From positions 1 through 51,902 of the forward strand of contig JAAWKZ010000005.1 in NCBI GenBank assembly GCA_022797635.1: 51,902 nt of DNA. Direction: 5' to 3'. Shown here one piece after another: positions 24,278-51,902 of the stretch. The position numbers and the translations under genes are program-made. The notes under the pieces are model-generated. The model did no database searches, had not been told where the DNA came from, and worked only from the letters and a program-made list of their open reading frames with translations. Position 1 is the first letter of the stretch. Every line of letters begins with the position of its first letter. The stretch is from Clostridia bacterium (GTDB lineage: Bacteria; Bacillota; Clostridia; TANB77; CAG-508).

Positions 24278-25393
24278 TTAAAAATTTAATTTGTCATAAA
24301 CATATCTGTCCATTTTCTTAATAACTTTATAACTATTTCCCCTTTTCATATGGCCTCTCCAACTATAATAGGAATTCCATACTTGCTCTTTTGTCATTTT
24401 TCCTTCTTCTATCCACCTTTTAAAAGTTTTTATCTTTTTTCTCATTCTGGGAGTTGCATCTCTATTCATTTTCCTAATTACTTTTCCTGTTTGGGTACAA
24501 AAGAATTTTGTTTTCAAAAATTTAAAACCAGTAGCAAACTTTTGTATTTTAGTTTTCTTTTCATTTAGCATCAATCCTAGTTCAGCAACTTTCACTTTTA
24601 TTTTAGCTAATGTTTCTTTTGCTTCTTCTAAAGTTGCCGTAAAAAAGTAAAAATCATCCACATATCTTGCATAACATTTCACTCTTAACGTATCTTTGAT
24701 ATAATGGTCTAAGGGGGTTACAGCAATATTGGTATAAATCTGGGATGTATGGGCCCCAAGTCCAAAACTAGTATCACCATATAATTCCATACATAAATTA
24801 GCAACATGTCTAATCTTTTCATCATAAATACGTTTTTGGTGTTCTTTGTATACTACATAATGTGGTGCAGAATTGAAAAAGTCTTTAAAATCACAAGTAA
24901 CAATATAGCCATTTAAGCCATATTTTCTAAAGTGTCTTTGCATATGGCAATTCACTCTATCTAAGGTATGATCCATTCCTTTTCCTACTCTATTTGCTGC
25001 ATTATCATAAATAAATGTATTATCATAAATAGGAACAATTACATGGTCACATAAATCACGCTGAATAATTCTCTCACTTAACTTTTGTGCTTGAATTTTT
25101 CTTCTTTTTCCTCTTTCACAAACATAGAAAATATAGGGCTTTGAAAGCTTTAATTTATCTGTTTGTAAAGTTTCATAAATTTTATAAGTGGTAGAAATTC
25201 TTTTTTTAGCATAATTCTGTGTAGAAGCCTTCCATAATACATTTCTCATGCATTTTGTGCCAGCTTGATATAGATTTTCATAAGAAAATACTTCTTCAAA
25301 ACTACCACATGCTTCACTTTTCTTTCTTCTTTTTTCTTCCCTCATAGCTTTTCTTCTTTGGTATCTTAGTTCATGTCTTTCTTCACTTGTCAT
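24278..25393 (-). CDS. DGR reverse transcriptase
   Basis: GKRRKI, ERIIQR, DFKDFF, GAHTSQ (DGR-type SQ), LDHYIK, RYVDD and LNEKKT motifs; 371 aa, no maturase/HNH extension. Confidence 0.93.
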   Translation of the reverse strand: MTSEERHELRYQRRKAMREEKRRKKSEACGSFEEVFSYENLYQAGTKCMRNVLWKASTQNYAKKRISTTYKIYETLQTDKLKLSKPYIFYVCERGKRRKIQAQKLSERIIQRDLCDHVIVPIYDNTFIYDNAANRVGKGMDHTLDRVNCHMQRHFRKYGLNGYIVTCDFKDFFNSAPHYVVYKEHQKRIYDEKIRHVANLCMELYGDTSFGLGAHTSQIYTNIAVTPLDHYIKDTLRVKCYARYVDDFYFFTATLEEAKETLAKIKVKVAELGLMLNEKKTKIQKFATGFKFLKTKFFCTQTGKVIRKMNRDATPRMRKKIKTFKRWIEEGKMTKEQVWNSYYSWRGHMKRGNSYKVIKKMDRYVYDKLNF

Positions 25394-25403
25394 TTGTATG
25401 TTT

Positions 25404-25770
25404 AACCTCCGTACATTATAATTGCGAAGTAGAACTGACTATGAAATTGACACACTATAAAAATATGTCAACCATGCAAGCAGCGTCCAGTCATCTACAT
25501 CAAAGGTTCTTTTTGGTTTGTAATTACCACAAACTCAGGAACAAATTTCCCTTTCACAAAAGTTTTGATTCACTTTTTACAGTTACTATGTCTTACTTAT
25601 ATCTTGTGAAATCCAGGCGCAACGCCACCAGTGTTGCTCGCGTTGTTATTGTTGTTAGTGTTACCGTTGCTGTTGACATTGCAGAAGTTGTTGCTGTTGT
25701 TGTAATTAGGTGAACGAAGCCACCACCAGTTCGTACTGCCTGACAACGTAATTATCGAAATTTGACCTAT
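25404..25770 (-). ncRNA. DGR template cassette 7 (TR7 25609-25743)
   Basis: TR reads SGSTNWWWLRSPNYNNSNNFCNVNSNGNTNNNNNASNTGGVAPGF; spacer end contains the RT Shine-Dalgarno. Confidence 0.88.
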
Positions 25771-25853
25771 ACTTCCTTATATTTTTCTTAATAACCTTGA
25801 TTACAGAATTTTATTTTTTCCTAATTAAACACATAATTGACATATTAATTTTT

Positions 25854-26217
25854 AACCTTTGTACATATTTAATGCAAAGCAGAACTGGCTATGAAATTGA
25901 CATTCACTAAGAACTTATCAACCATGCAAATAGCGTCCAGCCATCTACATCAAAGGTTCTTTTCGGTTTGTGGTAACCACAAACTCAGGAACAGATCTCC
26001 CTTTCACAAAAGTTTTGCTTCACTTTTTACAGTTACTATGTCTCACTTATATCTTGTGAAATCCAGGCGCAACGCCATTGTTATTGCTCGCGTTGTTCCA
26101 GTCTGAAGCACCGTTGTTGTTGACATTGCAGAAGTTGCTGCTGTTGTTGTAATTAGGTGAACGAAGCCACCACCAGTTCGTACTGCCTGACAACGTAATT
26201 ATCGAGATTTGACCTAT
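25854..26217 (-). ncRNA. DGR template cassette 6 (TR6 26059-26190, one codon shorter)
   Basis: SGSTNWWWLRSPNYNNSSNFCNVNNNGASDWNNASNNNGVAPGF plus conserved leader and spacer. Confidence 0.88.
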
Positions 26218-26278
26218 ATTGAAATTTTATACTATTTTGTTATAACTTTAATTTTTTATTTAACTTATTTATTTTTCA

Positions 26279-26637
26279 AACCTTTGTACACCATTTATAG
26301 TAGAACTGACTATGAAATTGACATATAAAAAATATGTCAACCATGCAAGCAGCGTCCAGTCATCTACATCAAAGGTTCTTTTCAGTTTATATTTACTATA
26401 AACTTAGGAACAAATCTCCCTTTCACAAAAGTTTTGCTTCACCTTTTATTGGTTACTATGTCTTACTTATATCTTGTGAAATCCAGGCGCAACGCCATTG
26501 CTGTTGCTCGCGTTGTTATTGTTGCTGTTGCCGTTGCTGTCGATATTGCAGAAGTTGTTGCTGTTGTTGTAATTAGGTGAACGAAGCCACCACCAGTTCG
26601 TACTGCCTGACAACGTAATTATCGAGATTTGACCTAT
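26279..26637 (-). ncRNA. DGR template cassette 5 (TR5 26479-26610, one codon shorter)
   Basis: SGSTNWWWLRSPNYNNSNNFCNIDSNGNSNNNNASNSNGVAPGF. Confidence 0.88.
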
Positions 26638-26747
26638 ATTTCTTTAAAATCTCACTGTTTCTAGTCTCATACTGTCTTTCGATACTACTCATTATAAAAC
26701 TTTTCTATTTCCTTACTTAACATACATTTATTGGTATATTAATTTTC

Positions 26748-27115
26748 AACCTTTGTACATACTTAATGCAAAGCAGAACTGGCTATGAAATTGACATTCA
26801 CTAAGAACTTATCAACCATGCAAGCAGCGTCCAGCCATCTACATCAAAGGTTCTTTTCGGTTTGTATTTACTACAAACTCAGGAACAAATTTCCCTTTCA
26901 CAAAAGTTTTGATTCACCTTTTATTGGTTACTATGTCTTACTTATATCTTGTGAAATCCAGGCGCAACGCCATTGTTGTTGCTCGCGTTGTTCCAGTTGT
27001 CTGTGTTGCCGTTGCTGTTGACATTGCAGAAGTTGCTGCTGTTGTTGTAATTAGGTGAACGAAGCCACCAGTTGACCGTACTGCCTGACAACGTAATTAT
27101 CGAAATTTGACCTAT
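26748..27115 (-). ncRNA. DGR template cassette 4 (TR4 26954-27088)
   Basis: SGSTVNWWLRSPNYNNSSNFCNVNSNGNTDNWNNASNNNGVAPGF. Confidence 0.88.
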
Positions 27116-27200
27116 TCTATACATGTTCTAATTCTCTATAAACTTTAAAATAATATTTCATTTTATCCTATGCTTGACACATACTGATACTTTAATTTTT

Positions 27201-27560
27201 AACCCTTGTACACTATTTACAGTAGAACTGACTATGAAATTGACATAAAAAATATGCCAACCATGCAAGCAGCGTCCAGTCATCTACATCAAAGGTTCTT
27301 TTTGGTTTGTAATTTCTACAAACTCAGGAACAAATTTCCCTTTCACAAAAGTTTTGCTTCACCTTTTATTGGTTACTATGTCTTACTTATATCTTGTGAA
27401 ATCCAGGCGCAACGCCATTGTTGTTGCTCGCGTTGTTGCTGTTGTTAGTGTTACCGTTGTTGTTGACATTGCAGAAGTAGTTGCTGCCGTCGTAACCAGG
27501 TGAACGAAGCCACCACCAGTTCGTACTGCCTGACAACGTAATTATTAAAATTTGACCTAT
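27201..27560 (-). ncRNA. DGR template cassette 3 (TR3 27399-27533)
   Basis: SGSTNWWWLRSPGYDGSNYFCNVNNNGNTNNSNNASNNNGVAPGF. Confidence 0.88.
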
Positions 27561-27656
27561 ACTATTTTATATTTTTAAAACCTTAATGATAGAATTTTAC
27601 TTTATTTCCTTACTTAACATATATTGACATATTATTGAATATTAATATCTTCTTTT

Positions 27657-28010
27657 AACCTCTGTACGAAGTAGAACTGACTATGAAATTGACACATAAA
27701 AATATGTCAACCATGTAAACAGCGTCCAGCCATCTACATCAAAGGTTCTTTTTGGTTCGTAATTTCTACAAACTCAGGAACAAATTTCCCTTTCACAAAA
27801 GTTTTACTTCACCTTTTATAGGTTACTATGTCTTACTTATATCTTGTGAAATCCAGGCGCAGCGCCACTATGGTTGCTCGCACCGTCCGCGTTATCCGTG
27901 TCACCACTGCTGCCGACATAACAGAAGTAGTATCTGTCGCTGTAATAAGGTGAACGAAGCCACCACCAGAGCGTACTGCCTGACAACGCAATTATCAAAA
28001 TTTGACCTAT
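27657..28010 (-). ncRNA. DGR template cassette 2 (adenine-poor, VR-like core 27849-27983)
   Basis: SGSTLWWWLRSPYYSDRYYFCYVGSSGDTDNADGASNHSGAAPGF in intact leader/spacer flanks. Confidence 0.8.
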
Positions 28011-28107
28011 TCTATTTTATATTTTTAAAACCTTAATGATAGAATTTTACTTTATTTCCTTATTTAACATATATTGACATATTATTGAATATTAATATCT
28101 TAATTTT

Positions 28108-28465
28108 AACCTTTGTACTTTTTATAATAGAACTGGCTATGAAATTGACACATAAGATATGTCAACCATGCAAACAGCGTCCAGCCATCTACATCAAAGG
28201 TTCTTTTTGGTTCGTAATTTCTACAAACTCAGGAACAAATTTCCCTTTCACAAAAGTTTTGATTCACCTTTTATTGGTTACTATGTCTTACTTATATTTT
28301 GTGAAATCCAGGCGCAACACCATTGTTGTTGCTCGCGTTGTTGGCATTGTCTGTGTTGCCGCTGCTATTGACATTGCAGAAGTTGTTGCTGTTGTGGTAA
28401 TAAGGTGAACGAAGCCACCACCAGTGCGTACTGCCTGACAACGTAATTATCGAAATTTGACCTAT
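28108..28465 (-). ncRNA. DGR template cassette 1 (TR1 28304-28438), cognate template of the adjacent VR
   Basis: SGSTHWWWLRSPYYHNSNNFCNVNSSGNTDNANNASNNNGVAPGF; 12 of 13 mismatches to VR are at TR adenines. Confidence 0.92.
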
Positions 28466-28887
28466 AGTGTTTTAAATCTTTCAGCATCTGATTTCATGAT
28501 ACTTTTTAAAAGTCTCTGTTCTTCTGACAAAAGTCTTCCCCATTCCTGAAAAGCATACTCTTTCCATTCTTTATTTTCTTCTGGGTTCAGTTCTAATCTT
28601 GACTTCAATTCTGTCAATGGCAATTCCATATTTTCACAAGCAGCTAATGCTTGTTGAAAATGCATTTTACGATTTTGCGCATCTATTTTATTTTCTGGAA
28701 CAATATTATTGGCGATATTAGCCTCATAATATACTTTTCTTGCCAAACTACAAATATCTTTTGTCAAAAAGAATGTTAATCTTTTTGGAGATTTCAAGCA
28801 ATATGTCAAAGTATGCGCTGACAATTTCCTTGCATTCTCCAAAAATAAAGTTTTACTTTCATTTCTTTTACTTACATATACTGACAT
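28462..28887 (-). CDS. avd: DGR accessory variability determinant (Avd-like four-helix bundle)
   Basis: 141 aa, basic and helical, MSV..SKR.ES start; canonical position between target and TR; assignment largely positional. Confidence 0.8.
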   Translation of the reverse strand: MSVYVSKRNESKTLFLENARKLSAHTLTYCLKSPKRLTFFLTKDICSLARKVYYEANIANNIVPENKIDAQNRKMHFQQALAACENMELPLTELKSRLELNPEENKEWKEYAFQEWGRLLSEEQRLLKSIMKSDAERFKTL

Positions 28888-28912
28888 AATTGCTCTCCCT
28901 TTTATATAATTT

Positions 28913-28934
28913 TGTCCCTCCTTTCGGAGGGACA
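28913..28934 (-). promoter_or_regulatory. Candidate DGR target-recognition hairpin downstream of VR
   Basis: Perfect 9-bp stem tgtccctcc/ggagggaca with a GAAA loop on the minus strand, 75 nt after the target stop. Confidence 0.65.
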
Positions 28935-29009
28935 GATTTTTTCACCGTTTCTGGCTCATACCTCTATTTTGTTCTCTCTTCGCTCGTTGTTCGTGTCAAG
29001 GGCCAGATC

Positions 29010-31829
29010 CTAGATGCAAAAGCCAGGCGCAACACCAAAGTAGTTGCTCGCGTGGTTGGCATAGACTGTGTTGCCGCTGCTATAGACATAGCAGAAGTAG
29101 CTGCTGTTGTGGTAATAAGGCGAACGAAGCCACCACCAGTACGTACTGCCTGAGGCATTGTACTTTTGACGTCCTGTGCTCGAACTGTTCCATGCGTCTG
29201 TTACTCCTTGGTAATATTTATACTGTGGTCCTTCTGATGTGATTGCATAGCCGTATGTTCCACTTCCATTATATCCGTTATTTACTACCTCGCTTGCTGC
29301 TAATAACCATAAGTAATCATTACATGTTGCTACACTACTTGCACTATTATATGTTCCAATGTACTTCTTCTTTACTTGTTTGATATATGCTTTATTACTT
29401 AGCTTGTCTTTTCCTTCTGCTCCATTTAAAAATGTTCTCATTGCTGTATTTGCCCAGCCTCCACTGTTTGTATTACTACTGTTCATTTGCTTATATGTGT
29501 TTCCTGTCATGAAATCTAAGAATTCAAAACTTATACTTGCCTTACTATGGTTTCCTCCATACACTCCACTATTTACTAAATCATCGTGTTTAAATCCTAA
29601 TACTCTTACTCTTCTTTCATCTGTACCATATCTTACTTTATAGATATCTCCTACTTTTATGGTTTTACTTGTTCCATTTACTGTCACCGTTGCTTGTGTT
29701 GAACTGCTTGTAACACTACTATTTGCAATAGCTTTTGCCATCTCATTTAGTTCATCCCATGATGCTGCTATTTGATCCACTGCTTTTACTGTTACACTAC
29801 ATGTTGCTGATTTATTACTTCCATCCGCTGTCTTTACTGTGATTGTTGCAGTTCCTGCTTTTACACCTGTTACTAAACCTGTATTGCTTACTGTTGCTAC
29901 TCCTGTATTGCTTGAACTCCATGTTACTGATTTATTTTTTGTACCTGCTGGTGTTACTGTTGCTGTCAATTGTGTTGTCTTTCCTTCATCCATTGAAGCT
30001 GTTGTTGGGCTTACTGTTATTCCTGTTGCCAATTGATTTACAGTTACTGCTCCTGACACTGTTTCTACCTTATTTCCTGCATTATCTACTGTTAATACAT
30101 GTAAATAATATGTTCCTGCCGTTGTTGTTGACCATGTAATACTTTGACTATTGCTACTGAATGTTCCTCCTGTATAGCTACTTGCATTTGTTCCTAGCCT
30201 TGTAGCACTTGTTGTGAATACCCATTTACACTCTGCTGCTTTTGGTCCACTTTCATTATCTTGATGTGTTACTGTTGCTGTAATATTTGCTCCTGTATTT
30301 GCACTTGTTGTTAAATTACTAATTGTTGCCTTTGGATCTACTCCATCTCTTATTGCTACATATGCTGAATCTCCAGCGTTTGTTCCATCGTATAGTCTTG
30401 CATATACACTGTCTCCATGGTTCAACTCTGATACAGTTGTAGTCTTTGTTCCTGCTGGAACTGTTGTCCATGTTCCACTGATTCCATTCTTTTGCCATTG
30501 AATCTGTAAATTTGTTGAAGTAGTTAGTGTAATACTTGCTTTTCCACTTGACCATGTTGGACTACTTGCTATAATACTTCCTGTTGTTAAGTCCGAACCA
30601 GCTCCACCTACTGTTCCTGTTTTAATTCCAGTTGATGTTCCAGCTCCTTCATTCTCTGCTTTATCTTTTGTTGTTACTTTTACATCATAATTTGTATTTT
30701 GTGTTAATCCTGTAAAAGTATAGCTTGCATTTGTTCCTGTATATTTTGCTGTACCATAACTACTGTCTGATGACTTTTTAATGAAGAAACTATAGCTTGG
30801 ACTTGTTGCCATTCCCCATTCTGCATCTGTTGCTGATGCTGTTACTGTAATGCTATTTGTTGTTACACTTCCTTTAGCAACTGATACAATTGGTGCTCCT
30901 CCATCTCTAATTTCTACTGTTGCTACATCACCTTCATTTCTTCCATCTGTTGCTCTTGCATAAACTGTGTCGTTATGATTTAAGTTACCAATTGGTCCAT
31001 TATATGGTTGCCATGTTCCATCAATTCCATTAACTTGATATTCCAATTTAAATCTTGATTCTGCATCTTTTAACATTAATTCTATACTTGCTTTTCCAGC
31101 TGACCAAGTAGTTATTCCTTTTTGTTGAATTGTTCCATATCTTAATTCACCTGTTAATTCACTAATAACTGTCTCACTTGTTCCTTTTTTATTTTTTACA
31201 ACTACTTTTATATCATATATTTTGTCTGGGTCTAAATTAGTAAAGTCTGCAGTTAAATCTGTTGTATTTTGTTTTCCTGCCAACTCATGATAAGTTACCT
31301 CATCTGACTTTTTATAGTAATAGCTTAACTTTCCCTCTTCTAATCTTCTTACTGTTACTGCTACTGAAATACTATCGCTTGATTTAGTAGTTACTGTAAT
31401 TGATCCTACTTTTGGTGGTAGTTTGTCACCTTGTACCACTTCTCCTACTGAAATTTCTCCATCAGGTGTCACAATAATTTCTACTACACATCCATCTGTT
31501 GTATCTACTATATATACATCATTTTCTCCATCTTTATCTGGTCCTGTTACATCTTTATCACTCTCAATAATTCCTGCATCAATTAATTTATCCCAAAATT
31601 CATCTAGTCCAACATCTGGATTAGTTTGTTTTTGCATCCACCAATCCATAAGAGCAATCTCTATTTTTTCTCTTGCTTGTGCTGTTTGTGTCTTTTCCTT
31701 AGCTGCTACAGCTTTTTGAAATATACTATTATCTCCCATAACATAGTTAATAGTTATACCTGCTAAAATAAGTAAAACTACAATTGTAACTACTAATGCT
31801 ATTAAAGTAATACCTTTGTTTCTTTTCAT
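29010..31829 (-). CDS. DGR target: pilin-leader surface protein with FN3-like repeats, Big_2 Ig domain and C-terminal WWLRSP (DUF6273/CLec-like) variable domain
   Basis: MKRNKG-ITLIALVVTIVVLLILAG leader; FTGLTQNTNYDVKV (FN3); VTWSSSNTGVATV (Big_2); VR at the 3' end. Confidence 0.92.
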   Translation of the reverse strand: MKRNKGITLIALVVTIVVLLILAGITINYVMGDNSIFQKAVAAKEKTQTAQAREKIEIALMDWWMQKQTNPDVGLDEFWDKLIDAGIIESDKDVTGPDKDGENDVYIVDTTDGCVVEIIVTPDGEISVGEVVQGDKLPPKVGSITVTTKSSDSISVAVTVRRLEEGKLSYYYKKSDEVTYHELAGKQNTTDLTADFTNLDPDKIYDIKVVVKNKKGTSETVISELTGELRYGTIQQKGITTWSAGKASIELMLKDAESRFKLEYQVNGIDGTWQPYNGPIGNLNHNDTVYARATDGRNEGDVATVEIRDGGAPIVSVAKGSVTTNSITVTASATDAEWGMATSPSYSFFIKKSSDSSYGTAKYTGTNASYTFTGLTQNTNYDVKVTTKDKAENEGAGTSTGIKTGTVGGAGSDLTTGSIIASSPTWSSGKASITLTTSTNLQIQWQKNGISGTWTTVPAGTKTTTVSELNHGDSVYARLYDGTNAGDSAYVAIRDGVDPKATISNLTTSANTGANITATVTHQDNESGPKAAECKWVFTTSATRLGTNASSYTGGTFSSNSQSITWSTTTAGTYYLHVLTVDNAGNKVETVSGAVTVNQLATGITVSPTTASMDEGKTTQLTATVTPAGTKNKSVTWSSSNTGVATVSNTGLVTGVKAGTATITVKTADGSNKSATCSVTVKAVDQIAASWDELNEMAKAIANSSVTSSSTQATVTVNGTSKTIKVGDIYKVRYGTDERRVRVLGFKHDDLVNSGVYGGNHSKASISFEFLDFMTGNTYKQMNSSNTNSGGWANTAMRTFLNGAEGKDKLSNKAYIKQVKKKYIGTYNSASSVATCNDYLWLLAASEVVNNGYNGSGTYGYAITSEGPQYKYYQGVTDAWNSSSTGRQKYNASGSTYWWWLRSPYYHNSSYFCYVYSSGNTVYANHASNYFGVAPGFCI
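29019..29153 (-). repeat. DGR variable repeat (VR)
   Basis: Colinear 135-nt match to TR1; encodes SGSTYWWWLRSPYYHNSSYFCYVYSSGNTVYANHASNYFGVAPGF. Confidence 0.93.
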
Positions 31830-50746: not shown

Positions 50747-51902
50747 TTAGATACAAAATCCTGGGGCTACAGCACTACTATATCCTGCACTATTATGATG
50801 ACCAACACTGCCACTAGCATTAACATTACAGAAGTCATTTCCACTACTGTAATAAGGCGAACGAAGCCACCAACCATATGCACTTCCTCCTGTCTTCTTT
50901 GTACGTTCACTACTTAATGAGTTCCAGCTCGCTGATATTCCTTGGTAATATTTATACTGGCCTCCCTCTGTTGTAATTGCATATGCATAATATCCACTTT
51001 GATATCCACTATTTACTATTTCGCTTGCTGCTAATAACCATAAATAATCGTTACATGTTGTTACACTACTTGCACTATTATATGTTGCAATATATCTTTT
51101 CTTTACTTGTTTAATATAAGCTTTATTACTTAGTTTTTCCTTTCCGTCTGTTCCATTTAAGAATGTTCTCATAGCGGTTGAACCCCAACCACCAGAATTT
51201 GTGTGACTACTATTCATGTTCTTTTGCGTTGAGCCTGTCATGAAATCCAAAAACTCAAAACTAATACTTGCTTTTGTATGGCTTCCTCCATATATTCCTG
51301 TATTTACTAAATCATCATGTTTGAAACCTAATACTCTTACTTGTCTTTCTTCCCCATTGTATTTTACTTTATAGATTCCACCTACACTTATTTCATAACG
51401 TTCTCCATTTGCTGTATATCCTGTTGCTTTTGTTGAACTACTGTTAATGCTACTATCTTTTGCTATTGCTGTCGCTATTCTGTTCATTGTTGCCCAGCTT
51501 GCATCATCTGATCCTATTGTAACTGGTGTTGGATCTTGTACTGTTATGCTACAGGTTGCCGACTTATTACTTCCATCTGCCGTCTTCGCTGTAATTGTTA
51601 CATTTCCTGCTTTTACTCCTGTTACTACACCACTAGAGTTTACTGTTGCTACTCCTGTATTGCTACTTGTCCATGTTACTCCTTTATTTGATGCATTACT
51701 TGGTGTTACTGTTGCAGTTAATTGCTTTGTTTTCCCTTTTTCTACAGTTGTAGGTGTTGGACTTACTGTTATTCCTGTTGCTAATTGTCTTACTGTTACT
51801 GCCCCTGATACTGTTTCTAATGCATTTCCTGCATTATCTACACTTAATACATGTAAATAGTAGGTTCCTGGTGAACTCGCATTTAAATTTATCGTTTGTC
51901 CA
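50747..51902 (-). CDS. Paralog of the DGR target protein, 3' part (starts beyond the right edge)
   Basis: Frame open to the window end: ...GTYYLHVLSVDNAGN..., Big_2 domain, VRVLGFKHDDL, WWLRSP...VAPGFCI; closely parallels 29010..31829. Confidence 0.9.
   Translation of the reverse strand, partial: GQTINLNASSPGTYYLHVLSVDNAGNALETVSGAVTVRQLATGITVSPTPTTVEKGKTKQLTATVTPSNASNKGVTWTSSNTGVATVNSSGVVTGVKAGNVTITAKTADGSNKSATCSITVQDPTPVTIGSDDASWATMNRIATAIAKDSSINSSSTKATGYTANGERYEISVGGIYKVKYNGEERQVRVLGFKHDDLVNTGIYGGSHTKASISFEFLDFMTGSTQKNMNSSHTNSGGWGSTAMRTFLNGTDGKEKLSNKAYIKQVKKRYIATYNSASSVTTCNDYLWLLAASEIVNSGYQSGYYAYAITTEGGQYKYYQGISASWNSLSSERTKKTGGSAYGWWLRSPYYSSGNDFCNVNASGSVGHHNSAGYSSAVAPGFCI

Follow-up and report, generated by a model that had tools for sequence, protein, structure and literature searches.

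The closest described counterpart of the locus reported here is the DGR RNA of the Bordetella phage BPP-1. In this RNA the template:primer duplex adjoins a second duplex designated "cPRT Stop", and putative stop duplexes were reported by Handa et al. for 207 out of 278 Avd-type DGRs. For BPP-1 it is also reported that restored complementarity failed to restore cis-primed reverse transcription. Among the RT-associated RNA families treated by Weinberg et al. 2017 (PMC5737381), only RT-10 is tied to a DGR in that paper, which speculates on the others. DGRs possessing more than one TR are recorded in two surveys (Yan et al. 2019, PMC6642488; Carrasco-Villanueva et al. 2024, PMC11661182).

Here we describe a DGR with seven tandem cassettes, which is located on the minus strand of a stretch of 51,902 nucleotides from a Clostridia bacterium (contig JAAWKZ010000005.1), the whole of which is called the window. 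An earlier note on this DNA had claimed that the leader in front of each TR pairs with the spacer behind it. This pairing was confirmed.

Organization of the DGR locus

On the minus strand, a target gene containing a VR is followed by an Avd-like ORF, the seven cassettes and a reverse transcriptase gene. The target gene (29010..31829) encodes a product of 939 aa with Big_2 and fn3-like domains (Pfam) and a C-terminal lectin-type variable domain, DUF6273 (residues 780-939, E 3.6e-16). Its VR (29019-29153, minus strand) resides at the 3' end of the gene, as is characteristic of DGRs, and showed 11 mismatches at TR adenines and one elsewhere when compared with the TR of unit 1. The TR of unit 7 has its cognate VR on another contig of the assembly (C28, 18877-19011), from which it differs by 17 mismatches at A and two at other positions. 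The restriction of TR-VR differences almost solely to TR adenines (11/12 in unit 1 and 17/19 in unit 7) is a further property of a DGR. Directly downstream of the VR, in the interval separating target gene and Avd-like ORF, the scan for terminator-like sites disclosed a G+C-rich hairpin (28911..28936 on the minus strand, entered on the plus strand by the scan), whose counterpart in the relative L038 exhibits base changes.

The Avd-like ORF (28462..28887, minus strand, 141 aa) was assigned by position; at its stop codon it overlaps with the TAGG in the leader of unit 1. It gave no sequence match in Pfam, NCBIfam or PDB, and none of its 55 homologues contains a Pfam domain. The predicted structure is helical (pLDDT 66), the best Foldseek row being an S23-family four-helix bundle with a probability of 0.95 and an E value of 0.41, which is not significant. 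The expected place of the ORF weakly suggests that it encodes the Avd accessory protein. The reverse transcriptase (24278..25393, minus strand, 371 aa) contains RVT_1 (Pfam) and matches phrog_1423 (E 4e-74). Its best solved relative is bRT of the Bordetella phage BPP-1 (8ub7_A, E 1.3e-16), with TSQ aligned to TSQ. Judged by its domain and by this relative, the enzyme appears to belong to the DGR clade of reverse transcriptases.

The seven complete modules are arranged in tandem with a period of 376-478 nt. Each is composed of a 13-nt leader strand, a linker of 13 nt, a TR of 128-131 nt, one A, a 9-nt template strand and a small stem-loop, followed by the primer strand CUUUUGUGAAA, GG, the stop strand, a 7-bp hairpin, an A-rich stretch and a long multi-stem domain belonging to the Rfam RT-2 RNA. 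All seven spacers matched this family (RF03077) over its full length (model positions 1-222) with 93.2-117.8 bits, the cut-off being 40.

All positions of the units refer to the minus strand. In unit 1, the leader strand TAGG-T-CAAATTTC (28452..28464) precedes a block (28298..28438) made up of the TR (28308-28438, 131 nt), one A (28307) and the template strand TTTCACAAA (28298-28306). The spacer linker of this unit (28230..28256) contains the primer strand CTTTTGTGAAA, GG, the stop strand GAAATTTG, TT and CCTG, and the RT-2 RNA extends over 28088..28295 (100.7 bits). Unit 2 exhibits the leader strand TAGG-T-CAAATTTT with a terminal U-G (27997..28009), the TR (27853-27983) together with the template strand (27843..27983), a linker with the primer strand, GG, GAAATTTG, TT and CCTG (27775..27801), and the RT-2 RNA (27637..27840, 93.2 bits). 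Its TR is poor in A, comprising 26 A versus 38-42 in the other TRs. The leader strand of unit 3 (27547..27559) likewise reads TAGG-T-CAAATTTT with a terminal U-G; TR (27403-27533) and template strand (27393..27533), spacer linker (27325..27351) and RT-2 RNA (27181..27390, 106.5 bits) follow. In unit 4, TAGG-T-CAAATTTC was again found as leader strand (27102..27114), ahead of the TR (26958-27088) with its template strand (26948..27088), the linker (26880..26906) and the RT-2 RNA (26728..26945, 116.2 bits).

Units 5 and 6 deviate in both strands. The leader strand of unit 5, TAGG-T-CAAATCTC (26624..26636, the 8-mer at 26624-26631), contains a T to C change, for which an A to G change in the stop strand GAGATTTG (26411-26418) compensates; this stop strand lies in a linker (26405..26431) that also contains CCTA. 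The TR of unit 5 (26483-26610, 128 nt) and its template strand occupy 26473..26610, and the RT-2 RNA 26259..26470 (105.3 bits). Unit 6 has the same leader strand, TAGG-T-CAAATCTC (26204..26216, the 8-mer at 26204-26211), a TR of 128 nt (26063-26190; with template strand 26053..26190) and a linker (25986..26012) whose stop strand GAGATCTG (25992-25999) possesses the compensating G and one A-C mismatch, within an RT-2 RNA at 25834..26050 (111.7 bits). Unit 7 finally contains the leader strand TAGG-T-CAAATTTC (25757..25769), the TR (25613-25743) with the template strand (25603..25743), the linker (25536..25562) and an RT-2 RNA reaching the start codon of the reverse transcriptase gene (25384..25600, 117.8 bits).

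Two adjoining helices in each cassette

Re-reading of the units bore out all leader and spacer sequences and coordinates reported in the earlier note. In units 1, 4 and 7 the leader CAAATTTC is complementary to GAAATTTG of the own spacer, while in units 2 and 3 CAAATTTT faces GAAATTTG with a terminal G-U. Units 5 and 6 change both partners together from U-A to C-G, unit 6 keeping its A-C mismatch. The helix turned out to be longer than noted. Immediately 5' of the leader 8-mer, TAGG pairs with CCTG or CCTA situated two bases 3' of the spacer 8-mer, which results in 12 pairs in total. In every cassette the leader is constructed as UAGG-U-8-mer and the spacer as 8-mer-UU-CCUG. In BPP-1-type DGR RNAs the adenosines make A-minor contacts with G:C pairs of the stop duplex. 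Here the helix is rich in A-U, its G:C pairs being confined to the TAGG/CCUG part, and adenosines are present after the hairpin.

The second pairing that had been put forward, between the 3' end of the TR, TTTCACAA(G/A), and (C)TTTTGTGAAA, was found as well, with 41-42 nt between the strands (approximately 50 nt from start to start). This template:primer helix comprises nine pairs with UUUCACAAG and is 100% paired in the seven units and four cassettes of relatives. As all seven units contain CUUUUGUGAAA-GG-GAAAUUUG, the stop strand starts 2 nt after the primer strand, and the TR is looped out, as proposed, between two duplexes separated by 2 nt of the spacer strand. Both helices were predicted by RNAalifold unprompted, on seven as well as on 11 sequences, and with unit 5 alone both the MFE and the centroid fold contained them. 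The 7-bp hairpin behind the stop strand (alignment columns 268-286), which is also part of the RT-2 consensus, revealed three covarying pairs and is followed by CAAAAAG or CGAAAAG. The folding energy of the whole cassette is ordinary (z = -1.29), 11 of 100 shuffles folding equally well.

Covariation in close relatives and in phages

A lone 8/8 partner arose within the downstream 337 nt in 30 to 315 of 2000 shuffles (1.5-16%), depending on the unit. A single 8/8 match is by itself thus within reach of chance. The helix rises above chance because of the RNAalifold prediction, the covariation among close relatives, and the partners and covariation found at phage loci. We aligned the seven units with four cassettes from relatives. 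In these 11 sequences 98.5% of the cells are paired, and four of the 12 pairs changed on both sides. Pairs 26/255 and 27/254 are each UA in nine and CG in two sequences, pair 24/257 is AU in nine, GC in one and GU in one, and pair 28/253 is CG in seven, UG in three and UA in one. Three covarying pairs beyond the change in units 5 and 6 go back to compensatory changes in the relatives. None of 500 shuffles matched the observed percentage of paired cells, the number of double-changed cells or the covariation score, and the count of double-changed pairs was matched by four of 500; when the register was slid, the six alternatives yielded 0 to 2 such pairs each. Exceptions to pairing are the A-C mismatch in unit 6 and a G-G mismatch in L039. 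Units 2 and 3, L037b, L042 and many phage loci contain G-U pairs, which affect several positions. They fit an RNA of the minus strand only, as DNA or the opposite strand would have A-C mismatches in their place. The template:primer helix showed no double-sided variation among close relatives and is therefore uninformative there.

Close relatives of the array are few. A scan with the RT protein disclosed three loci in genome contigs, two in metagenome contigs, one of which is unrelated at 24% identity, and one weak locus in viral contigs. The contigs of L036 and L037 break off a short distance upstream of the RT, that of L037 within the array. No cassette match was obtained in L038, which harbors the VR and the Avd-like ORF besides a portion of the RT. 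Within the family, DNA and RT searches of samples of 200 and 400 genomes revealed this DGR type only in G088 and as a broken copy in G368, the remaining RT matches being approximately 32% identical. The Rfam search for RT-2 found one other genome of the order above the cut-off (G088) and none over the class, in which one genome was unscored.

Phages yielded a larger sample. Out of 20 tested phage loci with the 17-nt motif, 19 contained a full-length RT-2 RNA. The family-wide test was carried out with an anchor-based script requiring A[AG]GG-N8-N1-3-CC, so that the AAGG and CC anchors are fixed by construction. A perfect upstream 8/8 partner was detected at 55 of 65 distinct phage RT-2 loci, compared with 435 of 4088 non-cognate pairings (10.6%). 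The phage loci comprise 44 distinct leader/spacer combinations in which all eight positions covary. GG[T/G/C] precedes the leader in 67 of 75 phage loci, and the 3' end of the TR (...GGA, then the duplex) covaries with the primer strand. None of 80 phage RT-2 loci contained another module within 900 nt. The RT-2 model shows the primer and stop strands as a conserved linker without pairing, since the sequences with which they pair are located upstream of the variable TR and thus outside the model.

Function of the helices and alternative readings

A comparison with the BPP-1 DGR RNA, which the earlier note had advised, showed that the elements agree in order and spacing, the primer strand being followed after 2 nt by the stop strand, then by a stem-loop and adenosines. 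We consider it highly probable (approximately 0.85) that leader and spacer form the stop duplex of a DGR RNA, whose template:primer duplex is formed by the TR 3' end and the spacer, each of the seven cassettes presumably being a complete cis-priming RNA. Since this layout matches the published RNA of the Bordetella phage, the mechanism is already known, and the pairing is in effect a rediscovered published element and not a new mechanism. By analogy with the phage structure, the RT-Avd complex would grip the spacer stems, and the primer strand would be positioned by the adjacent duplexes such that its final A faces the nucleotide immediately 5' of the template strand, where the TR-VR homology has its 3' edge. 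The cDNA would be primed from this A, through its 2'-OH as in BPP-1-type RNAs, cross the TR with errors at adenines and halt at the leader:spacer duplex, about 13 nt past the 5' edge of the homology. In a tandem array such a stop may also bar reverse transcription from entering the upstream cassette. As restored complementarity gave no rescue in BPP-1, pairing alone may not suffice, and a stop function at this locus cannot be proven by analogy.

The earlier note had moreover regarded the clasps as unit-specific. An own sequence for each clasp would allow a leader to close only its own spacer and would keep the cassettes apart in a long transcript. Such a transcript is plausible, as the scan found no terminator-like site inside the array, which would also fit the independent folding of cassettes in a polycistronic RNA that the earlier note had put forward, and units 5 and 6 indeed differ from the others at one pair on both sides. 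However, the clasps come in no more than two states, U-A or C-G. The spacer strand is identical in units 1-4 and 7, so that their leaders cannot distinguish spacers and these five units are interchangeable. The leaders of units 1, 4 and 7 bind the unit 5 spacer no less well (-12.3 versus -11.4 kcal/mol), and the leader of unit 6 favors the spacer of unit 5 (-14.9 kcal/mol) over its own (-10.4 kcal/mol). Furthermore, the single-cassette DGRs of phages, which need no address, possess the same helix. The claim of specificity was therefore not upheld. We regard an address code as improbable; the choice of the correct partner is probably set by transcription order and proximity.

Two further functions of the paired strands appear very improbable. 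The helices are just 2 nt apart and could stack coaxially (approximately 21 bp together), so that, in an array without internal terminators, a double-strand-specific RNase might cut them and free single cassettes. Contigs of one metatranscriptome match parts of the Avd-like ORF and of units 2-5 exactly, for which carry-over of DNA is possible, and the best sequencing run contained 0.72 of the sampled words. These public data, being contigs, cannot show RNA ends, strand or level, and bins without RNA cover in X15 and X16 are meaningless. Against processing, the solved BPP-1 particle retains both helices intact in the active RNP, and single-cassette phage elements contain the same helices. A promoter scan of the minus strand gave just weak consensus matches in AT-rich tails.

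We likewise see little reason to interpret the complementary strands as an inverted repeat acting at the DNA level, i.e. as a recombination or protein-binding site that drives duplication or exchange of cassettes. Outside the TRs, units 6 and 5 most resemble units 4 and 3, respectively. That units 5 and 6 nevertheless have the double change in common points to gene conversion and a mosaic history of the array. This would suit a recombination site, but the tolerated G-U pairs speak for RNA, and the helix keeps a fixed register next to the primer strand, in a structured RNA that belongs to a known family. Least probable of all is a functionless chance complementarity spread by tandem duplication: the units are paralogues, whose common features are not independent, and a single match is within the range of the shuffles, but compensatory changes affected four different pairs in independent lineages and the phage loci show cognate partners far in excess of non-cognate ones, in 44 sequence combinations.

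Templates, targets and significance of the array

The assembly, which is 80% complete, contains approximately 18 VR-like gene ends. Clean VR partners were identified there for two of the seven TRs (units 1 and 7), and none for the other five. Contigs C24 and C9 are borderline partners of unit 5, with 16 and 21 mismatches at A and six and nine at other positions, respectively. Unit 2 looks as if it were a cassette mutagenized at adenines; if so, the element can write into its own templates. A joint reading, according to which one Avd/RT pair serves seven self-priming DGR RNAs, the stop duplex acts as an insulator and the template of unit 2 was self-written, is tentative, and we would rate it somewhat below even odds. 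If it were true, a gut bacterium of approximately 1.3 Mb would possess seven template "programmes" for about 18 paralogous lectin-tipped surface proteins, and the stop duplex would double as an insulator confining reverse transcription and folding to one cassette.

The value of the pairing itself, the stop duplex according to our preferred reading, is confirmatory. Natural covariation indicates that base pairing in both the stop and the template:primer duplex is under selection in a second family of DGR RNAs, as is evident from four of 12 pairs in close relatives and the 44 phage combinations; the compensatory mutants of BPP-1 could not show this. The conserved "unpaired" linker of RT-2 gains a function, containing the predicted priming A, start nucleotide and stop site. 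Moreover, the array is a natural case of one RT choosing among several complete template RNAs and bears on how DGRs restrict or direct mutagenesis and on the engineering of multiplexed DGR mutagenesis.

Comparison with known systems

Like the members of the RT-2 family (RF03077), the spacers are located directly upstream of an RT gene. Beyond the RF03077 model, upstream partners of the linker were identified, both here and at the 55 phage loci. In the literature searched, no paper named RT-2 in a stop or primer role. The multi-TR DGRs of the surveys resemble this locus in that one RT is accompanied by several TRs. In their available portions, however, these surveys give counts, not head-to-tail arrays of complete leader-TR-spacer modules, and a literature search for tandem multi-TR arrays yielded no description.

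The likeness to BPP-1 extends to several elements. In both systems the spacer forms a duplex with the sequence just upstream of the TR, which in unit 1 is the 3' end of the accessory gene. The stop strand lies 2 nt from the spacer strand pairing with the TR 3' end, the primer strand ends in A, followed by G, and a short stem-loop and adenosines succeed the stop strand. A stem-loop between the TR and the primer strand, a long stem domain at the 3' end of the spacer and a TR looped out between two duplexes are likewise shared. Differences concern the spacer, which is RT-2 here and RT-10 in BPP-1 (Rfam family, sequence and fold) and measures approximately 215 nt versus 140 nt, the helix (8+4 bp with a 1x2 internal loop versus 11 bp) and the hairpin behind the duplex (7 bp versus 2 bp). 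Whereas engineered compensatory changes gave no rescue in BPP-1, natural ones maintain the pairing here. The element is also present in seven tandem copies at this locus. It is these seven self-contained cassettes, together with the linking of RT-2 to long-range helices, that make the DGR less ordinary.

The DGR locus

The window carries a chromosomal DGR on its minus strand, in which the target gene is followed by a hairpin, a 141-aa ORF, seven cassettes and the reverse transcriptase (RT). By its domain matches the target (29010-31829), 939 aa long, is a surface-type protein that carries, besides Big_2, a DUF6273 lectin-type domain at its C-terminus. Directly after this gene, which bears the variable repeat (VR), lies a G+C-rich hairpin of 11 bp with a 4-nt loop (28911-28936, minus strand); its counterpart at the same place in the related locus L038 is kept with base changes, and it may be the counterpart of the hairpin that DGR target sites require. 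The 141-aa ORF (28462-28887) occupies the position expected for Avd. It had no match in Pfam, NCBIfam or PDB sequences, its structure model reached a pLDDT of 66, and its best fold match, an S23-family four-helix bundle, was non-significant (E 0.41). By position we call it a putative Avd. The seven tandem cassettes, each composed of leader, template repeat (TR) and spacer and 376-478 nt long, span 25394-28464 and are numbered along the minus strand; the RT of 371 aa is encoded at 24278-25393. Downstream of the DGR lie housekeeping genes, aspS and rlmN-like.

The best solved relative of the RT is bRT of the Bordetella phage (8ub7_A, E 1.3e-16), with the TSQ motif aligned. Mismatches between the unit 1 TR and the adjacent VR affected 11 adenines and one other base, those between the unit 7 TR and a VR on contig C28 17 adenines and two other bases. 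A bRT-like RT and adenine-biased TR-VR differences are the defining features of a DGR. The assembly (1.02 Mb, 80% complete) contains about 18 dispersed VR-like gene ends with homology to the TRs, on contigs C1, C6, C9, C13, C16, C17, C19, C24, C27, C28, C29 and C33 and in the window at 50756-50890, many of them 400-1000 nt from a contig end. Clean TR partners were found for only two of them (units 1 and 7), while the ends on C24 and C9 were borderline partners of unit 5.

Long-range pairing between leader and spacer

The earlier note had described a clasp, in which the leader 8-mer pairs with a strand of the spacer of the same unit, and all of its sequences and coordinates proved correct on recheck. 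In units 1, 4 and 7 the leader CAAATTTC pairs with the spacer sequence GAAATTTG, whereas in units 2 and 3 the helix formed by the leader CAAATTTT ends in a U-G pair. In unit 5 the leader CAAATCTC (26624-26631) is complementary to GAGATTTG (26411-26418); unit 6 combines the same leader with GAGATCTG, leaving one A-C mismatch. The clasp is longer than first reported, with 12 pairs in total: a single base separates the leader 8-mer from a TAGG on its 5′ side, and this TAGG pairs with CCUG (CCUA in unit 5), which follows the spacer 8-mer after two bases. The complementarity of the TR 3′ end to the downstream spacer was likewise borne out: UUUCACAA(G/A) pairs with CUUUUGUGAAA, and the two strands are 41-42 nt apart.

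The leader of unit 1 lies at the extreme 3′ end of the 141-aa ORF, whose stop codon overlaps TAGG. About 10 nt ahead of each leader (TAAAA.A.TATAGG) duplicate the 3′ end of this Avd-like ORF in the tails of units 1-6, indicating that the duplicated unit started inside the Avd-like gene. The AT-rich tails themselves, which separate RT-2 from the following leader, are about 42 to 91 nt long (e.g., 28010-28087 and 27560-27636).

By itself an 8/8 leader partner is weak evidence, as, depending on the unit, 30-315 of 2000 shuffles produced one, and the folding energy of the whole cassette was ordinary (z = -1.29). Unconstrained RNAalifold recovered both long-range helices on the seven units and also on 11 sequences, the units plus cassettes from four related contigs whose RTs are 98%, 98%, 73% and 71% identical. 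On the latter set, four of the 12 clasp pairs covaried and 98.5% of the cells were paired. Beyond the pair altered in units 5 and 6, the relatives change further clasp pairs on both sides: L042 has C-G instead of U-A at clasp pair 27/254; in L039 three clasp pairs are exchanged (A-U to G-C, U-A to C-G, C-G to U-A) and one G-G mismatch occurs. In 500 column shuffles the observed percentage paired, number of double-changed cells and covariation score were never reached, while the count of clasp pairs with a double change was attained in four of the 500. With the helix slid to six other registers, 0-2 such pairs resulted. The G-U pairs, present at several positions, fit an RNA helix on the minus strand and not a DNA repeat. 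Thus, the leader-spacer clasp is confirmed as real.

The claim that the clasp is unit-specific did not hold. Units 1-4 and 7 have one common spacer strand. The leaders of units 1, 4 and 7 form a U-G pair with the unit 5 spacer and thereby bind it slightly better than their own, and the unit 6 leader favors the spacer of unit 5 over its own (-14.9 vs -10.4 kcal/mol). The compensatory double change of units 5 and 6 is present and keeps the pairing; it does not serve as an address. Outside the TR, units 5 and 6 are not closest relatives (23 differences, compared with 14 between units 6 and 4 and 12 between units 5 and 3), so that gene conversion or two independent origins probably account for the state they share. 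If all cassettes reside on one transcript, the choice of the right partner would follow from the order of synthesis. No terminator-like site was found within the array, and contigs of one metatranscriptome contain exact pieces of the Avd-like ORF and of units 2-5, which may be DNA carry-over.

The spacers belong to the RT-2 RNA family

The spacers of all seven units matched the RT-2 RNA (Rfam RF03077) over the entire model with 93-118 bits (cut-off 40). This model shows primer strand, GG and stop strand as a linker that is conserved but unpaired (consensus ...uuugcaAAAGGAGagguacuucccu...), the partners of which sit beyond the variable TR and outside the model. As the spacer is a known RNA family, a far larger pairing test became possible. 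Searching phage contigs with a 17-nt RT-2 motif gave at least 110 matching contigs; 80 of these (L061-L140) were taken for analysis. Full-length RT-2 was present in 19 of 20 phage loci tested, the exception (L111) being a chance match.

The 8 nt following A[AG]GG were compared by script with the region 190-420 nt upstream of the motif. An 8/8 upstream partner existed in 55 of 65 distinct phage loci, compared with 435 of 4088 non-cognate combinations, counts that fall short of a formal covariation test and whose anchor regex fixes AAGG and CC by construction. As in the window, the partner (≥7/8) was preceded by GG[T/G/C] in 67 of 75 phage loci. The loci disclosed 44 distinct leader/spacer combinations with several Watson-Crick types at each of the eight positions, and the TR 3′ end, which typically reads ...GGA ahead of the duplex, covaried with the primer strand.

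RT-2-type DGR RNAs, common on phage contigs, are rare in bacterial species representatives of the host order and class: in the order, a profile search exceeded the cut-off in one genome out of 150 others; in the class, none of the 149 scored genomes reached it.

A tandem array of complete DGR RNAs

Two DNA runs, each from a different study, supplied short contigs, none of which alone spans the array; these contigs reproduced the unit-specific junctions 6/7, 5/6, 4/5 and 3/4 and the unit 1 tail exactly. One run also yielded the unit 2 tail, the other a piece connecting the unit 2 TR with the unit 1 tail. The depth of the array contigs resembled that of the flanks (46-65 vs 70-80 in run X2, 11-24 vs 11-15 in run X1).

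The relatives L036, L039 and G088 show one cassette each. L037, whose RT is 98% identical, shows at least two, its contig starting inside a preceding cassette. Its RT-adjacent cassette (L037:229-500) keeps leader and spacer but lacks alignment columns 100-193, which comprise most of the TR together with the template strand; an A to G change in the leader gives a G-U pair. A second cassette within 900 nt was found at none of the 80 phage RT-2 loci; five second matches (up to three mismatches) were spurious or lay inside the same RT-2. A literature search found no head-to-tail array of complete leader-TR-spacer modules, though the supplements of Handa et al., outside this search, may list such DGRs. 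The seven-fold array of complete DGR RNAs is rare.

The unit 2 TR (27853-27983) is poor in adenine (26 A vs 38-42 in the other six TRs). At 29 positions it departs from the consensus of the others; 19 of these are adenines in the consensus (A>G 12, A>T 5, A>C 2), while leader and spacer show just 9-10 differences from units 1 and 3. It has the appearance of a template that has undergone adenine mutagenesis itself or is decaying.

Comparison with the BPP-1 DGR RNA

The DGR RNA of the Bordetella phage, solved by cryo-EM (Handa et al., bioRxiv 10.1101/2023.10.23.563531), contains a template:primer duplex of TR117-129 with Sp47-56, and cDNA is primed from the 2′-OH of Sp A56. Between TR and primer strand lies an Avd-binding stem-loop. 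Two nucleotides on, Sp59-70 pairs with the last avd codons upstream of the TR to form the 'cPRT Stop' duplex, just ahead of which the cDNA terminates. A short stem-loop, adenosines with A-minor contacts, a single-stranded ring and a long RT-binding stem follow. Handa et al. also give putative stop duplexes for 207 of 278 Avd-type DGRs.

The order of elements in the window matches this structure: template strand, stem-loop, primer strand ending in AAA, GG and stop strand, followed by a 7-bp covarying hairpin, CAAAAAG and a multi-stem domain. A further parallel is the unit 1 leader, which lies at the extreme 3′ terminus of the accessory ORF. By this analogy, the two pairings very probably (roughly 85%) represent the known cPRT Stop and template:primer architecture in the RT-2 class of DGR RNA. 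Priming would then use the last A of GUGAAA, copying would begin with the A or G on the 3′ border of the TR-VR homology (28307/28308 in unit 1), and cDNA synthesis would halt within the 13 nt between the TR and the leader helix. Given the match to BPP-1, the picture of a clasp looping out the TR and positioning cis-priming was right in substance, and is already published for another DGR.

In Weinberg et al. (PMC5737381), RT-10 is assigned to BPP-1 and the other RT motifs are only speculated on; a literature search on RT-2 in DGRs found no link of RT-2 to a DGR role. Hence, the observation is confirmed and its mechanism already known from BPP-1, while the natural covariation of both helices (clasp and template:primer), the functional reading that clasp and primer pairing add to the RT-2 linker, and the rare seven-fold tandem array are added here.
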